From Candidatus Minimicrobia sp. QA0096 (GTDB taxonomy: Bacteria; Patescibacteriota; Saccharimonadia; Saccharimonadales; Saccharimonadaceae), in assembly GCF_963967315.1 (NCBI RefSeq), contig NZ_OZ017288.1, forward strand, positions 240,001 to 272,000: a stretch of 32,000 bases of DNA. Direction: 5' to 3'. The notes beneath the pieces were generated by a model. That model was given only the letters and a program-made list of their open reading frames with translations. It was not told where the DNA came from and did no database searches. The position numbers and the translations under genes are program-made. Positions 11,404 to 19,615 of the stretch are shown one piece after another. Numbering within the stretch: the first letter of the stretch is position 1; every line of letters starts with the position of its first letter.

Positions 11404-13905
11404 ATGACTAAAGTTCCACGCTTACTTGACACATTCACACCAAATCATTACAACCTAACTCTCGATTTAACACGCGCCGAGAAAAAAGAATTTTCTGGCA
11501 CAGTTATCATTTCTGGCGATTCCACCAGCGAATCAATTTCGCTACATTCCAAAGGCTTAACAATTCAATCAGCCACAATCAACAATCAGCCCGCCGACGT
11601 TTCATTTGGTGAGTTTGACGAATTGAGATTATCTCAGCCGAACCTTAAAGACGGAAATCACACAATTCACATCATTTTTTCCGGAAATATTACCGACGCA
11701 ATGCACGGCTTGTATCCTTGTTATTTCACTCACGACGGCGTTAAAAAACAGCTTTTCGCGACTCAATTTGAATCACATCACGCCCGCGAAGTTTTCCCTT
11801 GCGTTGATGAGCCGGCCGCCAAAGCCGAATACGATTTGACACTAATCACCCGAACAGGAATAGCAGTTTTGGGAAATATGCCCGTAAAAAGCGAAGAAGA
11901 AAATGGCGACTCACTCACAACGACATTTGAGAAAACCCCACGAATGAGCAGCTATCTTCTGGCTTTTGTCATCGGTGAATTGCACAAAAAATCCGCCCGC
12001 ACCAAATCTGGCGTCGAGGTTAACGTCTGGGCAACGCCAGCTCAGAATGAAAATACATTAGATTTTGCGTTAGATATAGCCGCTCGCTCAATTGATTTTT
12101 ATGATGAATATTTCGGCGTCAAATATCCATTGCCAAAATCCGATCACGTCGCCCTTCCCGACTTTTCGTCTGGCGCAATGGAAAACTGGGGCTTAATCAC
12201 TTACCGAGAAAGTTGTTTACTGGCAGACCCTGAGTTGACCCCAGAATCATCCAGGCGCTTCATTGCCACGGTTATCGCGCACGAACTTAGCCATCAATGG
12301 TTTGGCAATCTCGTTACCATGAACTGGTGGAACGACTTATGGCTCAACGAAAGCTTTGCCAATATGATGGAATACGTGGCGATTGATGCACTCCAGCCAG
12401 ATTGGCGTATGTGGGAAGATTTTGCCACAAATGAAGTAACAGCCGCACTCAGGCGCGACAGCTTAGACGGCGTACAATCCGTTCAGGCCGACGTCAATCA
12501 TCCAGATGAAATCAGCACATTATTTGACCCGGCGATTGTTTATGCTAAGGGCGGACGGCTGCTTGCTATGGTTAGAAAACTTATAGGCGAAGAGGCATTT
12601 CGCGCTGGACTTAAATCATATTTTGAAAAATTCGCGTATAAAAATACCGTCGGAAATGACTTATGGCAAGAATTAGAGTCGGCGAGCGGTCAGCCAATCG
12701 TCAATTTAATGAACGCTTGGATTTCCCAGCCAGGACTCCCTGTCGTATCGGTTTCAAGCAGCCACGACACGGCAACTTTAAGTCAAGAGCGATTCTTCAT
12801 TGGTGAACACCAACCATCCGACGCATTATGGCCGATTCCATTATTCGCAAACCAGCCACTTGACGTAAAAATCTTGAATCAAAAAGAAACCACCGTTTCC
12901 ATTGAAAAGCCATTGCAATTAAACTGTGGCTTAAGCGCCCACTTCATCACCAAATATGATGAATCCACTCGCGAATATTTATTGAAAAACATTACAGAAT
13001 TGCCAACCTTGGATAAGATTTGTATCTTACAGGACGCGACAATACTCGCCCGCGCTGGATTTGAAAATTCGGCGTCACTACTTCCATTGGCATTGTCGCT
13101 AAAAACCGAAACCAACGAAAAAGTCTTCGGTATGGCGGCTGGTTCTTTGACAGAACTACGAAAATTCGTCGATGACAATGACGCCGCCAGAGATTCATTA
13201 AAGAAAATTTCTGGAGAATTTGCGCGCGCCACATTTGAAGAGCTTGGCTGGGATGAAAAAGACGGAGAATCGGATGACGACCGCGAACGACGCACCACAG
13301 CTTTGAGTTTGATGATGTATAGCGAAGATAAAGAAGTTTTGGACGAGGCAAAAACGCGTTTTGACAGCAATAAGCCGGAAGACTTACCGACAGAAATTCG
13401 AGCTTTAATTATCAGCGTAAACGTAAGACATTTTGAGACGCCAGAGATGATTGAAAATCTCTTTGGCACATATAAAAACACGCCGTCAAATGACCTGCAG
13501 AATGATATTGCAATTGGACTAACTTCCACTAAAAACCCTGAAACAGCAGAAAAAATTCTTGCCAACATTAAAAATTCCAATGTTATCCGCCCGCAAGACG
13601 CCAGCCGTTGGTTTGTGTATTTAATTCGGGCCAGAGAAAGCCGCCAGATTGCGTGGAATTGGCTGAAAGAAAACTGGGCGTGGGTCGAAGATACGTTTGG
13701 CGAAGATAAAAGCTATGATGACTTCATTCGCTATGCCGCCACAGCCCTACTAACAACCGACGAACTTAATGACTTTCGACAATTCTTTGAACCGATGGAA
13801 AATATTCCAGCCCTCGCCAGAACGATTAAGCTGGGAATTACCGAAATATCAGCACGCGCTGAACTGATTAAACGAGACAAAGAGGCGGTTATCTCCGCGT
13901 TGTAA
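11404..13905 (+). CDS. pepN: Aminopeptidase N (M1 family zinc metallopeptidase)
   Basis: 833-aa ORF. GAMENWG exopeptidase motif, HELSHQWFGN..(18 aa)..WLNESFA zincin motif (HExxH-x18-E), and an ERAP1-like C-terminal helical domain. Confidence 0.95.
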   Translation: MTKVPRLLDTFTPNHYNLTLDLTRAEKKEFSGTVIISGDSTSESISLHSKGLTIQSATINNQPADVSFGEFDELRLSQPNLKDGNHTIHIIFSGNITDAMHGLYPCYFTHDGVKKQLFATQFESHHAREVFPCVDEPAAKAEYDLTLITRTGIAVLGNMPVKSEEENGDSLTTTFEKTPRMSSYLLAFVIGELHKKSARTKSGVEVNVWATPAQNENTLDFALDIAARSIDFYDEYFGVKYPLPKSDHVALPDFSSGAMENWGLITYRESCLLADPELTPESSRRFIATVIAHELSHQWFGNLVTMNWWNDLWLNESFANMMEYVAIDALQPDWRMWEDFATNEVTAALRRDSLDGVQSVQADVNHPDEISTLFDPAIVYAKGGRLLAMVRKLIGEEAFRAGLKSYFEKFAYKNTVGNDLWQELESASGQPIVNLMNAWISQPGLPVVSVSSSHDTATLSQERFFIGEHQPSDALWPIPLFANQPLDVKILNQKETTVSIEKPLQLNCGLSAHFITKYDESTREYLLKNITELPTLDKICILQDATILARAGFENSASLLPLALSLKTETNEKVFGMAAGSLTELRKFVDDNDAARDSLKKISGEFARATFEELGWDEKDGESDDDRERRTTALSLMMYSEDKEVLDEAKTRFDSNKPEDLPTEIRALIISVNVRHFETPEMIENLFGTYKNTPSNDLQNDIAIGLTSTKNPETAEKILANIKNSNVIRPQDASRWFVYLIRARESRQIAWNWLKENWAWVEDTFGEDKSYDDFIRYAATALLTTDELNDFRQFFEPMENIPALARTIKLGITEISARAELIKRDKEAVISAL

Positions 13906-13946
13906 ATAATTTGGTCGCATTATTTTATGGTTTTTGACAAAATCTA

Positions 13947-13975
13947 TTGACATTTTATTCTATTAGTGGTATAAA
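13947..13975 (+). promoter_or_regulatory. Strong sigma70-type promoter of orphan cassette 1: TTGACA-17-TGgTATAAA
   Basis: TTGACA at 13947-13952, 17-nt spacer, TG at 13967-13968, TATAAA at 13970-13975. Predicted TSS is near 13982. No start codon follows within 8 nt, so a ~190-nt leader is predicted. Confidence 0.65.
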
Positions 13976-14173
13976 TAGACACAGCTTTTGTTGACAGAAC
14001 AAATGTTTTGTCTGAAAGCGCACTTTGACAAGTGAAGAGAATCTATAAGACGAAGGTGAGATTTTGCGGTATTCTAATAAGTGCCTCAAAACCTCATCTT
14101 CGATATATGCCATCCGGGCGTTGATCAGTGTTTCCAGCACGGGCGTTCGCCCAGATGAGGAGAGAGTACTACA

Positions 14174-14560
14174 ATGTCGTTTATTACCGATGAAGTCAAG
14201 GCAAAGAGGGCTGCCAACCTCAAGGAAACAGAGGAGAGGATGGAGACACTCAGGAGAAATGAAGTCTCCCGTTTTCTCGAAGAGGGAATCCCCACACTGT
14301 GCGAGGAAGCCAGGAAAGCCGCAATCAATGAATACCTTATGAAAGGTAAGCTTCCAGATAAGATCTGTATCTCTGATCATAACCGTCTAGTCACTCCGGC
14401 AGTTGCAAACAGTCGCGGGTGTCGTAAGGAGCTCCTTAAGAAACTCCAGAGCCTCGAAGAGAAGGTCTGTGGTATTGAATTCCAATACACAGACTCCAAC
14501 ACGTGGGGAATTACTCCCGACCCCTGTATTGTCATCTACTTCTCCAACAACCAGGAGTAG
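14174..14560 (+). CDS. Orphan hypothetical protein (128 aa, soluble, 5 Cys), atypical codon usage
   Basis: 387-nt ORF with GAGGAG (14157-14162) upstream of the ATG. Codon choice is visibly different from flanking genes (Lys mostly AAG, 5 of 9 Arg as AGG/AGA, Leu CTC, G/C-rich third positions). I recognise no family. Confidence 0.55.
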   Translation: MSFITDEVKAKRAANLKETEERMETLRRNEVSRFLEEGIPTLCEEARKAAINEYLMKGKLPDKICISDHNRLVTPAVANSRGCRKELLKKLQSLEEKVCGIEFQYTDSNTWGITPDPCIVIYFSNNQE

Positions 14561-14623
14561 CAGGCAATAGCCTCGCAAACATGGCGAGTCTGTAGACTCT
14601 CCGTCAGATTCTCTCACTTGTCA

Positions 14624-14680
14624 TGTTTGCTCCATAGATGCGTGTCTATGCTGATGAGTCGGAAACGACGAAAGCGAACA
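14624..14680 (+). ncRNA. Hammerhead self-cleaving ribozyme, type III topology; predicted cleavage between C14632 and C14633
   Basis: UGUUUGCU-C(17) | helix I CAUAGAU-GCGU-GUCUAUG | CUGAUGA | helix II GUCG-GAAA-CGAC | GAA | AGCGAACA. All invariant core positions are present (C3 U4 G5 A6 G8 A9 G12 A13 A14 A15.1 U16.1 H17=C). Helix III is 8 bp and open; helices I and II are capped. Confidence 0.9.
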
Positions 14681-14682
14681 AT

Positions 14683-15672
14683 TTACTCCAACACCACACA
14701 TTCTTCAACTACAGGCGGATTTCCGTCGACAGAAATTGCCAGCATTTGCATATCACAGCTTCCATACTGCGCATTTTTGGCAATGAATATTTCAGCAGCA
14801 AAACGCATTTGTTGCTGTTTTTTATTTGTAATCGCCGCCAAGCCATCGCCAAAATTGTCATTTTTACGATATTTGACCTCTGTAAAATATAAAACATTAT
14901 CTTTTTTACTAACAATATCAATTTCACAATATCGCGTTCGCCAATTCCGCTCTATAATCTCATGACCATCAGCGACCAACCAATCCGCCGCCGCTTGCTC
15001 ACCTTTATCACCAGTTTGACGCGTTGTGTCTTTTTGCTGGTTTTTAGACTTTCCGTCGTCAGACGCATTTTGCGAATTCGCCCCAGTATTAGCATATTTA
15101 GCCAACGGCGCAAAACTCAATCGATGAAGTGGCGTTATGCCCAGATTATCAATAGCCGCTCGATGCTTCACCACACCATAACCAACGTGCGAAGAAAAAT
15201 CATATCCCGGATAAATATTATCCTGCTTCGCCATAAATTTATCGCGAGCCACCTTAGCAATAATCGACGCCGCCGAAACGCTCGGAATCAGACCGTCGGC
15301 TTTCGCTATAATTGTTACATACTTTTCTAGCGGTGTGCCCGCCAAAAAATTGACCGTCCCATCGATAATAATCTCATCAAACTTCGAGCCATTTTTCTGA
15401 CATTTCGCTTGAATTTCTTTGACTGCGCGCCGCGTCGCCAGTTTAAGCGCCTCGCTCATCCCTATTTCATCCAGCTCCTCAGCAGAAACCCAACCCAACG
15501 CCCAAGCCGATGTTTGCTCGCGAATTTCCTCATCAAGCAACTCACGTCGTTTTTTGGTCAATTTTTTACTATCATCCAGTCCTTCAATTTCAGCGCCACC
15601 CAAAACCACCGCGCCAATCACCAACGGTCCAGCCCACGCGCCGCGCCCGACTTCATCAATCCCCAGAATCAC
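14683..15672 (-). CDS. rnhB: Ribonuclease HII fused to a C-terminal YraN/UPF0102-family endonuclease-like domain
   Basis: 329-aa ORF with a GTG start. N-terminal ~200 aa is RNase HII (MILGIDEVGRGAWAGPLV, DDSKKL, SAASIIAKV). A low-complexity linker follows (NTGANSQNASDDGKSKNQQKDTTRQ). The C-terminal ~110 aa fits the YraN pattern (GEQAAADWL..G..IIERNWR..YCEIDIV....VLYFTEVKYR....G....AI..KK). Confidence 0.85.
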   Translation of the reverse strand: MILGIDEVGRGAWAGPLVIGAVVLGGAEIEGLDDSKKLTKKRRELLDEEIREQTSAWALGWVSAEELDEIGMSEALKLATRRAVKEIQAKCQKNGSKFDEIIIDGTVNFLAGTPLEKYVTIIAKADGLIPSVSAASIIAKVARDKFMAKQDNIYPGYDFSSHVGYGVVKHRAAIDNLGITPLHRLSFAPLAKYANTGANSQNASDDGKSKNQQKDTTRQTGDKGEQAAADWLVADGHEIIERNWRTRYCEIDIVSKKDNVLYFTEVKYRKNDNFGDGLAAITNKKQQQMRFAAEIFIAKNAQYGSCDMQMLAISVDGNPPVVEECVVLE

Positions 15673-16222: not shown

Positions 16223-16744
16223 TTACGCGTCTTTATGGCGAGCTGCAACTTCAGCAGCCTTAGCGTCAAGTTCAGCCTGAGCGGCATCTTTTTCAGCTTG
16301 TTTTGCAGCAGCAGCCTGAGCAGCTTCTTCCTTCAAGCGTTCAGCTTCCGCTTCTGCCTTAACGTCATGAATGTCATTAACAGCAGCGCGATCAAAGTTC
16401 TTAGCTGTCAAGCGAGCTGACTTACCGCTACGCTGGCGAAGGAAGCTTAAGAACTTGCGGCGAACCTTAGCACGACGAACAATCTCAATCTTCTCAATCA
16501 GTGGACTGTGCATCAAAAATGACTTTTCAACGCCAACGCCTGAAGCAATCTTTCGAACCGTAATGCGTGATGTGTGTGATTTTTTATTGTCGGTGCGGAT
16601 AACAACACCCTCGAACATCTGAATACGCTCTTTGTTGCCTTCCTTAATTTTCTGGTAAACGCGAACTGTGTCACCACTGCGAGCATCGACAACTGCTTGC
16701 TTTTTTTGTGCTTGGTTGATTTTGTTGATTAACTCAAAACTCAT
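16223..16744 (-). CDS. rplS: 50S ribosomal protein L19 with a ~55-aa Ala/Glu/Lys-rich C-terminal extension
   Basis: 173-aa ORF. The L19 core is GDTVRVYQKIKEGNKERIQMFEGVVIR..ITVRKIASGVGVEKSFLMHSPLIEKIEIVRRAKVRR. The tail is ..KAEAEAERLKEEAAQAAAAKQAEKDAAQAELDAKAAEVAARHKDA. AGGA SD lies 6 nt upstream. Confidence 0.95.
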   Translation of the reverse strand: MSFELINKINQAQKKQAVVDARSGDTVRVYQKIKEGNKERIQMFEGVVIRTDNKKSHTSRITVRKIASGVGVEKSFLMHSPLIEKIEIVRRAKVRRKFLSFLRQRSGKSARLTAKNFDRAAVNDIHDVKAEAEAERLKEEAAQAAAAKQAEKDAAQAELDAKAAEVAARHKDA

Positions 16745-18043: not shown

Positions 18044-19615
18044 CTAAGCACCAGCACCGTACTTAGCCGCATCACGAGAGTTTCCATCTATAAACAGAGC
18101 CACTAACGACTCCTGGTTCTGTTTGTCGCAAGCTCCTAAGAATAAAACTACTTCAGTCACTCCAGCTTCCTGAAGAGATTTTTTAGTCTCACTTTCATCG
18201 GGCATATCTTCAATGCTGACTTTTGACACATAAACTCTCTTGGCGTTATGCGTTTGTTCTTTCCAGGCGTAAATTATAAACGGATAAAGCTCTCTTAATC
18301 TGTTATTTAAGCCAATTGGCAAACCGACAGACTTATCTTCTGAAGTTGCTACACATTTAGCAGCCATAGTTAATTTGTCCTTAATAATAGGTAGAATGTC
18401 CCGCTTCTTCTCGTCGTTTTCGTATCCAGTCATTTTATGCTCGACCTTTTTAGCCTCTTCAGTGCGCGCGTCGACTACTGCGACCACAGTACCGTCACCA
18501 CCACGCTCAACATGCAGTACATCCACAATAGAATCTTCTTTAAGCCACGGAAACGTCTCGCTATCAAGCGTCACAGCATCTCCCGCCTTCAATCCAATTT
18601 CTACCAACTGAGAGCTGCCTTCTTCGATTGTCGGCTTCGATTTGTTTGATCTTTTTCTCTTAGCAACTTTTTTCAAAGACCCGCTCGCAATTTCACCCGC
18701 CACTTCGTAGGTTCTGAATTTTTCAGAAAGAACCTTTAGCTCACCTTCTAGAATTGACTCCATTTTTTCTTCCACCACGGATTTGGCAAGAGTTCGCACA
18801 TTCGGACAATTTTCCTCAAATACAATTTCCGTATATTCACGAGCTAACAACTCCTCGTCCAGATCTCTCATCCCGTCCGCACAATCGAGTATGGTTTTAG
18901 CCCACTCCAAGTCTCTTTCATAATTAAAGAAGGCTTCAACGCGCTCCATACGTACATCAACATTGCTCTCGAGCATTGCATTAAATTCGTCATATTTAAT
19001 CCCTGAAAAATCCGCCAACAGCTTGACTAATCTGTCCGTATTTTCACGAACTGGATCATATTCAGGCTGACTTACTTCAAATTCTATAAATGAAGAAGTA
19101 TCATCTTTCTCATGAACACTATCAATCACAGTCTCCTTAGTCTCTAATGTGAGTTGTATATATTCAGAGTCGGCAGCATCTGGGCTAAGATTATTATTCC
19201 TCTGAAATTTCTTTACTTTAGGAATTTTATGTCCTTCAAGATTGCAATACTTCGGAACATTAACTTCCGCTATTTTAGCGGGAAAAATTTTATCTAACGA
19301 CGATATAAAAGCATTTAGTGAGGCTTTATACTCCTTATTAAATTCCTCTTTTAACCGAGAACTCACTTCGTAAAAATCATAGCGGATCTCCAAATATTCA
19401 GGAGACTGGTCGTATGCATCCTTAGCCTGCTTAAGACTATCAATTACAGGCTTATATTTCTCAACCAAGTCCTTAAATATGGATGAATCTTTGGACACAT
19501 CTTCATATATATATTCAAGGAAATTGATAACAGTATCAAAAATTTCACAGACAGAGTCTTTCTCAGACTCTGAAGATTCGCTATCGTGACAAGAGTGTTC
19601 CGGAATTTCGCTCAT
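18044..19615 (-). CDS. Acidic 523-aa hypothetical protein (orphan), no signal peptide or TM
   Basis: Long ORF with its own promoter. It is rich in E/D/K and visibly AT-richer in codon use (ATA, AGA, TTA, AAG) than its neighbours. I recognise no motif. Confidence 0.8.
   Translation of the reverse strand: MSEIPEHSCHDSESSESEKDSVCEIFDTVINFLEYIYEDVSKDSSIFKDLVEKYKPVIDSLKQAKDAYDQSPEYLEIRYDFYEVSSRLKEEFNKEYKASLNAFISSLDKIFPAKIAEVNVPKYCNLEGHKIPKVKKFQRNNNLSPDAADSEYIQLTLETKETVIDSVHEKDDTSSFIEFEVSQPEYDPVRENTDRLVKLLADFSGIKYDEFNAMLESNVDVRMERVEAFFNYERDLEWAKTILDCADGMRDLDEELLAREYTEIVFEENCPNVRTLAKSVVEEKMESILEGELKVLSEKFRTYEVAGEIASGSLKKVAKRKRSNKSKPTIEEGSSQLVEIGLKAGDAVTLDSETFPWLKEDSIVDVLHVERGGDGTVVAVVDARTEEAKKVEHKMTGYENDEKKRDILPIIKDKLTMAAKCVATSEDKSVGLPIGLNNRLRELYPFIIYAWKEQTHNAKRVYVSKVSIEDMPDESETKKSLQEAGVTEVVLFLGACDKQNQESLVALFIDGNSRDAAKYGAGA

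Follow-up and report, generated by a model that had tools for sequence, protein, structure and literature searches.

Introduction

Hammerhead ribozymes have been known in bacteria since 2010-2011. Those of type III (Rfam RF00008), found in viroids, satellites and bacteria, share a core of C3-A9, G12-A14, the A15.1-U16.1 pair and C17, with helices I and II capped by loops, helix III open, and helix II opening with the pair G10.1-C11.1. Here we analyze a 32,000-nt stretch of the genome of Candidatus Minimicrobia sp. QA0096 (contig NZ_OZ017288.1, positions 240,001 to 272,000; called the window below, all positions being counted from its first letter), which carries at 14624-14680 on the forward strand a hammerhead with an identical core and the same arrangement of helices. 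From its sequence, its relatives and fold models we think it on balance probable that this is a functional ribozyme which cuts its own transcript after C14632, giving the upstream mRNA a ribozyme-made, hairpin-capped 3' end in a place where there is no terminator. Unlike the RF00008 examples, the window ribozyme is chromosomal and single and lies in the 3' untranslated region (3'UTR) of a protein-coding cassette; it also scores below the Rfam cut-off and has a long helix III (7-8 bp) whose 5' strand is common to two other conserved structures.

Clustered hammerheads between short genes in prophages and bacteria were described by Perreault et al. (2011), who proposed that they process transcripts into gene-length mRNAs, and the function of bacterial hammerheads is still described there as unproven (PMC3088659). 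Some non-Saccharibacterial relatives of our ribozyme resemble those clusters, with three copies at locus L076 and two at L067. Each Saccharibacterial cassette, in contrast, has its own promoter, 5' hairpin, competing 3'UTR hairpin and 3'UTR-complementary leader. The RAGATH motifs were discovered in the neighborhood of hammerhead- and twister-associated genes (PMC11061315), and one of them, RAGATH-10 itself, lies in the 5'UTR of this cassette; the discoverers of these motifs probably had the present ribozymes in their data. In the literature that we searched, which did not extend to the supplements of the original RAGATH papers, we found no description of RAGATH-10 over a ribosome-binding site or of the cassette, and no link of hammerheads with Saccharibacteria or Patescibacteria.

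Two other kinds of system bear on the RNA structures around the ribozyme. In icaR of Staphylococcus aureus and hbs of Bacillus subtilis, a 3'UTR segment that is partly pyrimidine-rich and resembles an anti-Shine-Dalgarno sequence pairs with the 5'UTR of its own mRNA; the pairing is alike here, but those messages have no ribozyme, whereas in the window the paired segment abuts the substrate strand of the hammerhead. In viroid hammerheads that are silenced by alternative folds, and in engineered allosteric hammerheads, a stabler competing helix sequesters one strand and makes the active fold conditional. Here, by comparison, the segment predicted to act as activator lies far away in the same mRNA, and the cleavage product would use the competing helix as its 3' cap. 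By sequence and topology, then, the ribozyme is an ordinary type III hammerhead; it is the cassette, the competing product-capping hairpin and the dependence on a leader that appear to be undescribed.

A complete type III hammerhead with covarying helices

All invariant hammerhead positions are present at 14624-14680 and the three helices follow one another in type III order (Table 1); that helices I and II are loop-capped and helix III open is seen both in the sequence and in the predicted fold. The element-by-element reading of helices, core, H17 and GAA in the original prediction, which had been made from the letters of the window, matches the sequence as described, and its claim that the motif is complete stands, with the core intact and the helices covarying in relatives. 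Folded in isolation, the 57-nt motif has the hammerhead secondary structure as its minimum free energy (MFE) fold, at -17.6 kcal/mol (z -2.9). The cut between C14632 and C14633 is a prediction from this structure and would be expected to leave a 2',3'-cyclic phosphate and a 5'-OH. There is one hammerhead in the window. An Rfam search found no other self-cleaving RNA family in 13500-15200, even at E values up to 10, and the weak Rfam matches in the region (CRISPR-DR31, miRNA families, FMN and others) we regard as chance.

The motif is present in 14 of 14 related genome loci, all of them from Saccharibacteria or Candidatus Nanosynbacter. When metagenomes and viral contigs were scanned with a pattern consisting of the window's own core and helix II, GATGAGTCGNAAACGACGAAA, we recovered about 80 further metagenome copies of the same ribozyme, along with about 30 unrelated type III hammerheads in which helix II and the helix I tip are the same but helices I and III otherwise differ wholly. 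We anchored 86 distinct sequences on the invariant core and aligned them without gaps in one fixed register. In this alignment 93.3% of cells are paired, as against 24-47% when the partners are slid, and in 13 of the 15 variable pairs both partners have changed. Covariation scores 0.439, compared with 0.143 for shuffled alignments, none of 500 shuffles reaching the observed value. Helix I is 99% paired, with double changes in six of its seven pairs, and helix III is 85% paired, with double changes in seven of eight. All 86 sequences have the U-A pair A15.1-U16.1, at least 90% have C17, and the CUGAUGA core is invariant except for a U4-to-C change in three. The original prediction had proposed that related genomes be searched for conservation and for covariation in the helices; both are found.

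A second line of evidence comes from covariance models. The model that we call R2, built from 27 non-Saccharibacterial outgroup sequences only, scores the window site at 72.4 bits over its full length, and the next best site in the 32 kb at 11.5 bits. With this score and the number of loci that carry the motif, the earlier statement that a chance match is very unlikely is borne out. Rfam's own RF00008 model gives the outgroup relatives, whose core and helix II are the same, 33.5-48.7 bits, which takes one of them past the cut-off. Judged by these sequence comparisons, the window ribozyme is a member of a real subfamily that the Rfam threshold catches only in part, and annotation based on Rfam misses it.

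Conservation extends beyond the core. U16, G17 and U20 (alignment numbering), at the tip of helix I, are at least 90% conserved even where the stem wholly differs, and the tip U-GYGU-R is kept together with an NAAA loop 2 across otherwise unrelated stems. Fast hammerhead cleavage at physiological Mg2+ requires a tertiary contact between helices I and II, and the conserved tip and loop 2 are consistent with such a loop-loop contact.

Viral contigs present a separate picture. Many in IMG/VR (L135-L156) have the same core and a GUCG-UAAA-CGAC helix II together with a closed helix III (CCGCCGAAAGGCGG), which is a different topology; L139 and L141 are among the few viral contigs with type III relatives.

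The ribozyme is the last module of a cassette of interchangeable small genes

Alignment of the related loci places the ribozyme at the end of a cassette of about 0.7 kb in Saccharibacteria (Nanosynbacter), whose order is promoter, 5'-terminal hairpin, leader, RAGATH-10 over the ribosome-binding site, small open reading frame (ORF), 3'UTR and hammerhead. The promoter is near-consensus and is kept in all cassette types; we read it by eye, as the rule of the automated scan demands a T at position 6 of the -10 element and hence does not list TATAAA. Transcription is predicted to start at about 13981-13983. The 5'-terminal hairpin, P1, begins at the predicted 5' end of the transcript (MFE -14.6 kcal/mol, z -3.3) and is found in all cassette types, where its inner and outer stems covary by eye (for example GCUUUU/GAAAGC versus ACUUUUG/CAAAAGU). 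A hairpin at the very 5' end is a classical protection of the bacterial mRNA 5' end. We had also considered the leader as a degenerate second hammerhead, on account of the similarity of leader GAAAGCGCAC to GAAAGCGAACA and a match to model R1 of 9.4 bits at 13985-14057. This idea was dropped: GAAAGC merely closes P1 with GCUUUU, and the catalytic residues are absent.

RAGATH-10 is the only match in the window when Rfam is run in gathering mode, from which Hammerhead_3 is absent. It occurs in 13 of the 14 related genome loci (73.9-88.9 bits) and, by nhmmer or Rfam, upstream of roughly half of the cassettes; the cassette types without it have no other RNA family at the Rfam gathering threshold. 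In its closing stem the 3' strand, AGAUGAGG (14150-14157), shares nucleotides with the Shine-Dalgarno sequence GAGGAG, which stands 7 nt ahead of the ATG at 14174, and the motif therefore looks like a cis-acting translational element and not like a free small RNA.

The ORF of the window, 128 aa long, had been called an orphan. That description does not hold, as we find 67 homologues of 59-88% identity, one of them named Candidatus Nanosynbacter. It has no match in Pfam, PHROGs or PADLOC, and its AlphaFold2 (AF2) model, with a predicted local distance difference test score (pLDDT) of 84.9, has no significant structural neighbor in fold searches of PDB and BFVD. At least 10 unrelated ORF families, with products of 80-260 aa that are soluble, membrane or lipoprotein-like, are found between this same promoter and leader on one side and this 3'UTR and ribozyme on the other (related loci L015-L134); none has a domain recognizable in the same three databases. 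One of these, family 8 (130 aa; L050, L051, L061 and L122), shows a weak, sub-threshold similarity to Pfam Tad4 (22 bits versus a cut-off of 25, E 2e-4), Tad4 being a phage inhibitor of Thoeris defense. Across the ORF families the ribozyme lies 45-150 nt past the stop codon. For the window this distance is 63 nt, not the 64 nt first given, while the other distance in the original prediction, 2 nt to the TAA of the convergent rnhB-yraN gene (14683-14685, reverse strand), is correct. In the slot between pepN and rnhB the ORF can fall to 32-35% identity with the ribozyme and the leader nearly unchanged.

Cassettes occupy at least five flanking contexts or genomic slots, with several ORF families in one slot (for example on the rnhB side) and one family in several slots. 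In all of about 90 cassettes the orientation of the ORF relative to promoter and ribozyme is identical, and at L122 two co-oriented cassettes stand in tandem, 960 nt apart. The statement that there is only one copy is therefore right for the window and wrong for the lineage, in which the same ribozyme ends many cassettes, sometimes in tandem.

Such mobility raises the question of whether the cassette is, or derives from, a selfish RNA unit of the kind seen in viroid-like RNAs and retrozymes: two hammerheads would excise each copy from a tandem array, the leader-3'UTR helix would keep its ends close, and ligation, for example by RtcB, would close the circle. The tandem cassettes of L122, the movement between slots and the complementarity that joins 5' and 3' ends would all fit such a unit. 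We nevertheless hold it to be very unlikely. The window has a single ribozyme and no flanking pair, each cassette has its own promoter and would begin with a 5' triphosphate, and the genes around the cassette have housekeeping functions; the nearest of them include no replicase, reverse transcriptase or recombinase, and no recombinase lies within 3-5 kb. No phage or plasmid record matched the cassette by blastn, the scan of viral contigs turned up just hammerheads of other types, and Perreault et al. sought circles from clustered bacterial hammerheads and found none (PMC3088659). The original prediction had likewise set aside a circularizing unit, and we agree with it, as the window site has neither a second flanking ribozyme nor a tandem repeat; a tandem pair occurs in one related locus, L122.

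A conserved hairpin ends two nucleotides before the predicted cleavage site

No terminator-like site is found between 14560 and 14800. The cassette being without an intrinsic terminator, the 3' end of the mRNA would therefore be made by the ribozyme cut. Of the roles first suggested for the ribozyme, definition of the 3' end of the upstream mRNA is the one to which the wider anatomy points: after the ORF comes no terminator but a conserved hairpin, I1, whose end lies 2 nt short of the cleavage site. What follows I1 is not a U run but UC and the ribozyme. Its 3' arm consists of CUUGUCA and the helix III 5' strand, and only U16.1 and C17 remain unpaired before the cut.

Nearly every cassette type has I1, its length being 13-17 bp and its energy -18 to -32 kcal/mol, and in nearly every one it ends at this same distance from the predicted cleavage site. 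Its short linker covaries (CAU/AUG, CU/AG, UGC/GCA, UAU/AUA). In 70 of 74 cases the sense strand folds better than the antisense strand, which identifies I1 as an RNA structure of the plus strand. Against shuffled upstream sequence the median z is -4.8, compared with -0.75 for the unrelated hammerheads, from which I1 is absent. For the predicted 5' cleavage product the fold is I1 followed by a tail of 2 nt, at -30.9 kcal/mol (z -6.1) and 61% of the ensemble.

The position of the ribozyme, which ends 2 nt from the stop of a convergent gene, suggests another role that the original prediction had also considered, namely that it severs read-through RNA coming from the strong cassette promoter and so spares rnhB-yraN a long antisense RNA, the shape of the mRNA 3' end being incidental. 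The lack of a terminator fits this, as does a second genomic context in which a convergent gene again ends directly after the ribozyme. However, the same ribozyme is followed at L122 by a co-oriented cassette and elsewhere by several other flanks, cutting RNA does not halt the polymerase, and insulation leaves unexplained the exact 2-nt spacing between I1 and the cut that nearly all cassette types share. We regard insulation as unlikely. The accompanying suggestion that the 5'-OH would expose the downstream fragment to decay is not established either, given that a 5'-OH end is a poor entry for RNases E and J, which depend on a 5' monophosphate.

A long-range helix is predicted to free the substrate strand

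Besides its partner in the ribozyme, the helix III 5' strand has two other conserved partners: the upstream 3'UTR segment with which it forms I1 and, through the adjacent nucleotides, the 5' leader. The helix between leader and 3'UTR is about 18-30 bp long, with its arms 580 nt apart. Over 25 cassette types, cognate duplexes of leader and 3'UTR have a mean energy of -28.9 kcal/mol, and non-cognate ones -22.0 kcal/mol (permutation p ~5e-5). The ungapped core of the helix is 88% paired, as against 29-45% with slid partners, and six of its eight variable pairs show double changes, for example GACAAG/CUUGUC to GAUAAG/CUUAUC. From these sequence patterns an RNA-level role of the long-range helix is likely but not proven. 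The original account, right about the ribozyme, had missed this pairing as well as I1 and RAGATH-10.

How the three structures compete can be followed in fold predictions (ViennaRNA). The 3'UTR and ribozyme alone favor I1, at -42.9 kcal/mol, over the hammerhead fold, at -35.3 kcal/mol. When the leader is added, the MFE structure (-85.0 kcal/mol) holds both the long-range helix and the complete hammerhead, and the same is true of the whole 702-nt transcript. Of 23 cassette types, none has helix III in its MFE structure without the cognate leader and 19 have it with that leader; with shuffled leaders helix III appears in 13 of 115 cases, and with the complementary tract reversed in 4 of 23. Two further pairings were noted beside these: the 3'UTR tract CUCUCC (14597-14602) is complementary to the Shine-Dalgarno region (14154-14163) and is paired with it in the whole-transcript MFE structure, and where a cassette lacks RAGATH-10, the Shine-Dalgarno sequence is itself part of the leader arm of the long-range helix.

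Complementarity between two arms that enclose a gene can also arise at the level of DNA, and the arms could be the ends of an invertible or exchangeable gene segment, with no relation to the ribozyme. The absence of sense/antisense asymmetry in the long-range helix fits such an inverted repeat, and the ORFs between the repeats are indeed swapped between strains. On the other hand, one ORF orientation in all of the roughly 90 cassettes is not what an inverton would give, there is no recombinase gene within 3-5 kb, and the repeat abuts helix III to the nucleotide and overlaps I1, which is clearly strand-specific. A DNA-level origin seems to us highly improbable.

The dependence on the leader could instead mean that the ribozyme is a negative regulator: cleavage would strip a protective 3' region from the mRNA and lead to its decay, with the leader pairing reporting the state of the 5'UTR (RAGATH-10 or ribosome binding). 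Hammerheads in the 3'UTR of rodent Clec2 genes have reportedly been proposed to trigger mRNA decay by cleavage. Predicted folding of the ribozyme is leader-dependent, and in the types without RAGATH-10, where the leader arm overlaps the Shine-Dalgarno sequence, translation and cleavage could be mutually exclusive. However, the cut would leave the very stable terminal hairpin described above, and a stable terminal hairpin protects a bacterial 3' end and does not expose it; downstream of the ribozyme, moreover, we see no terminator or other protective element that cleavage could remove. We consider a destabilizing role decidedly unlikely.

Proposed order of events and the points that weigh against it

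We return to the reading in which the ribozyme makes a capped 3' end. The leader would pair with the emerging 3'UTR, blocking I1 and leaving UGUUUGCU free for helix III. The ribozyme would then fold and cut after C14632, and the downstream RNA would be released. The mRNA would be left as a 5'-3' panhandle or, after release of the leader, with I1 and a 2-nt ...UC tail that ends in a 2',3'-cyclic phosphate. Degradation by 3' exonucleases should be hindered in both forms, and such a 3' end combined with the 5'-terminal hairpin may give a stable message that needs no terminator. In its fullest form this would be a natural long-range RNA switch, in which the 5' leader 580 nt upstream frees the substrate strand, only complete transcripts are cut, and the same hairpin caps the new 3' end; resting on fold models, this fuller proposal is a tentative one, which we would call possible rather than probable.

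Several results speak against all or part of this reading. To begin with the ribozyme itself, Rfam Hammerhead_3 (RF00008) gives it 28.6 bits (E=0.0015 in a 1.7 kb search, model positions 7-48 of 54), below the gathering cut-off of 48.5, and a sub-threshold score is what the original prediction had named in advance as refuting it. Secondly, part of the covariation evidence is circular. The 27 outgroup ribozymes were fetched with the window-derived pattern and retained only if helix I paired 7/7, a selection that fixed helix II, filtered helix I and ignored helix III, so that the support from helix II and from part of helix I is affected and helix III is the unbiased part of the evidence. Thirdly, 3 of 59 distinct copies of the family have CCGAUGA for CUGAUGA (U4 to C; L001 3478, L006 3487 and L107 11412); these may be weakened or inactive, and not every copy need be active. 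As to the long-range helix, it shows no strand asymmetry of G-U pairs (sense better in 28 cases, worse in 42), and at single loci the ungapped complementarity of leader and 3'UTR is no better than in shuffles; because this per-locus test failed, support for the helix rests on its recurrence, on the cognate versus non-cognate comparison and on covariation. A non-cognate leader, too, switches the fold in 41% of pairs, since UUGACAAG is common to all leaders. The MFE predictions ignore tertiary structure and co-transcriptional kinetics, and it is from sequence and such models that we infer cleavage itself, the order of events and the stabilizing effect.

Taken at face value, the first and third of these points would suit an inactive look-alike or a decaying relic that is kept for some other reason, such as overlap with the end of the neighboring gene. 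This strikes us as barely credible, since the motif hardly changes where identity of the adjacent ORF is down to 32-35% or where the flanking genes differ, and its helices carry compensatory changes. The sub-threshold score does not in our view decide the matter, the Rfam model being a poor fit to this subfamily, and on sequence grounds the comparative evidence outweighs it.

Positions of the features and neighboring genes

The features discussed above are collected in Table 1, together with the convergent rnhB-yraN fusion, which lies outside the cassette.

Table 1. Elements of the cassette, the parts of its ribozyme and the adjoining gene, in window coordinates
Feature	Position	Strand	Sequence or description	Basis
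Promoter	13947..13975	+	-35 TTGACA 13947-13952; 17-nt spacer ending TGn; -10 TATAAA 13970-13975	read from sequence
5'-terminal hairpin P1	13984..14019	+	GCUUUU...GACAGAAC-AAAU-GUUUUGUC...GAAAGC	fold
Long-range helix, leader arm	14026..14052	+	UGACAAGUGA-a-GAGAAUCU-auaa-GACG	inverted repeat I6
RAGATH-10 (RF03147)	14088..14167	+	75.1 bits versus cut-off 41.2, full length	
Small ORF, 128 aa	14174..14560	+	stop TAG 14558-14560	
3'UTR hairpin I1	14575..14630	+	arms 14575-14589 and 14616-14630; 15 bp, 2 G-U	
Long-range helix, 3'UTR arm	14602..14623	+	CGUC-AGAUUCUC-UCACUUGUCA; directly abuts helix III	
Type III hammerhead ribozyme	14624..14680	+	predicted cleavage between C14632 and C14633	sequence, fold, covariation, covariance model
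Helix III	14624-14631 with 14673-14680	+	UGUUUGCU with AGCGAACA; 8 bp, one U-G	
Cleavage-site nucleotide C17 (H17, non-G)	14632	+	C14632	read from sequence
Helix I	14633-14650	+	CAUAGAU-GCGU-GUCUAUG	read from sequence
Core C3-A9	14651-14657	+	CUGAUGA	read from sequence
Helix II	14658-14669	+	GUCG-GAAA-CGAC	read from sequence
G12 A13 A14	14670-14672	+	GAA	read from sequence
A15.1-U16.1 pair	14673 with 14631	+	A14673 with U14631	read from sequence
rnhB-yraN fusion, convergent, outside cassette	14683..15672	-	Pfam RNase_HII 1.8e-35 and UPF0102 6.1e-23	

At the junction with this fusion, about 20 nt past the ribozyme (14681-14700, TTTATTC[CA]AACA[CT]CA) are similar in a second genomic context (L010/L011/L088). 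They supply the stop and last codons of two unrelated convergent genes, rnhB-yraN (...VVLE*) and a 388-aa ORF (...MMFE*), and this sequence hints that the end of the cassette travels with, or replaces, the 3' end of its neighbor. Two further observations concern other genes of the window: bL19 (16223-16744, reverse strand; Pfam Ribosomal_L19, residues 5-113) is extended at its C terminus by about 60 aa, many of them Ala, Glu or Lys, and a 523-aa acidic ORF without a Pfam match (18044-19615, reverse strand) adjoins the malic-enzyme gene.

Discussion

The anatomy of this cassette gives the question of what hammerheads do in bacteria an unusually clear form. Sequence, conservation and covariation of the hammerhead, of I1 and of the long-range helix, along with their predicted energetics, are what the analysis observes, and they describe a ribozyme with a fixed place after many different small ORFs, no terminator, a hairpin that ends 2 nt before the predicted cut and a covarying pairing with the leader that is predicted to permit folding. 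The cassette also puts RAGATH-10, a motif of unknown function, over the ribosome-binding site of the same transcript that carries the ribozyme. Oral Saccharibacteria (TM7) are reported now to have cultured, genetically tractable members (PMC10633639), and the predictions made here are therefore directly testable. If the long-range switch proves true, the hammerhead would be a terminator substitute for cassettes of interchangeable small genes, and this would be the first concrete, testable physiological role for a chromosomal bacterial hammerhead.

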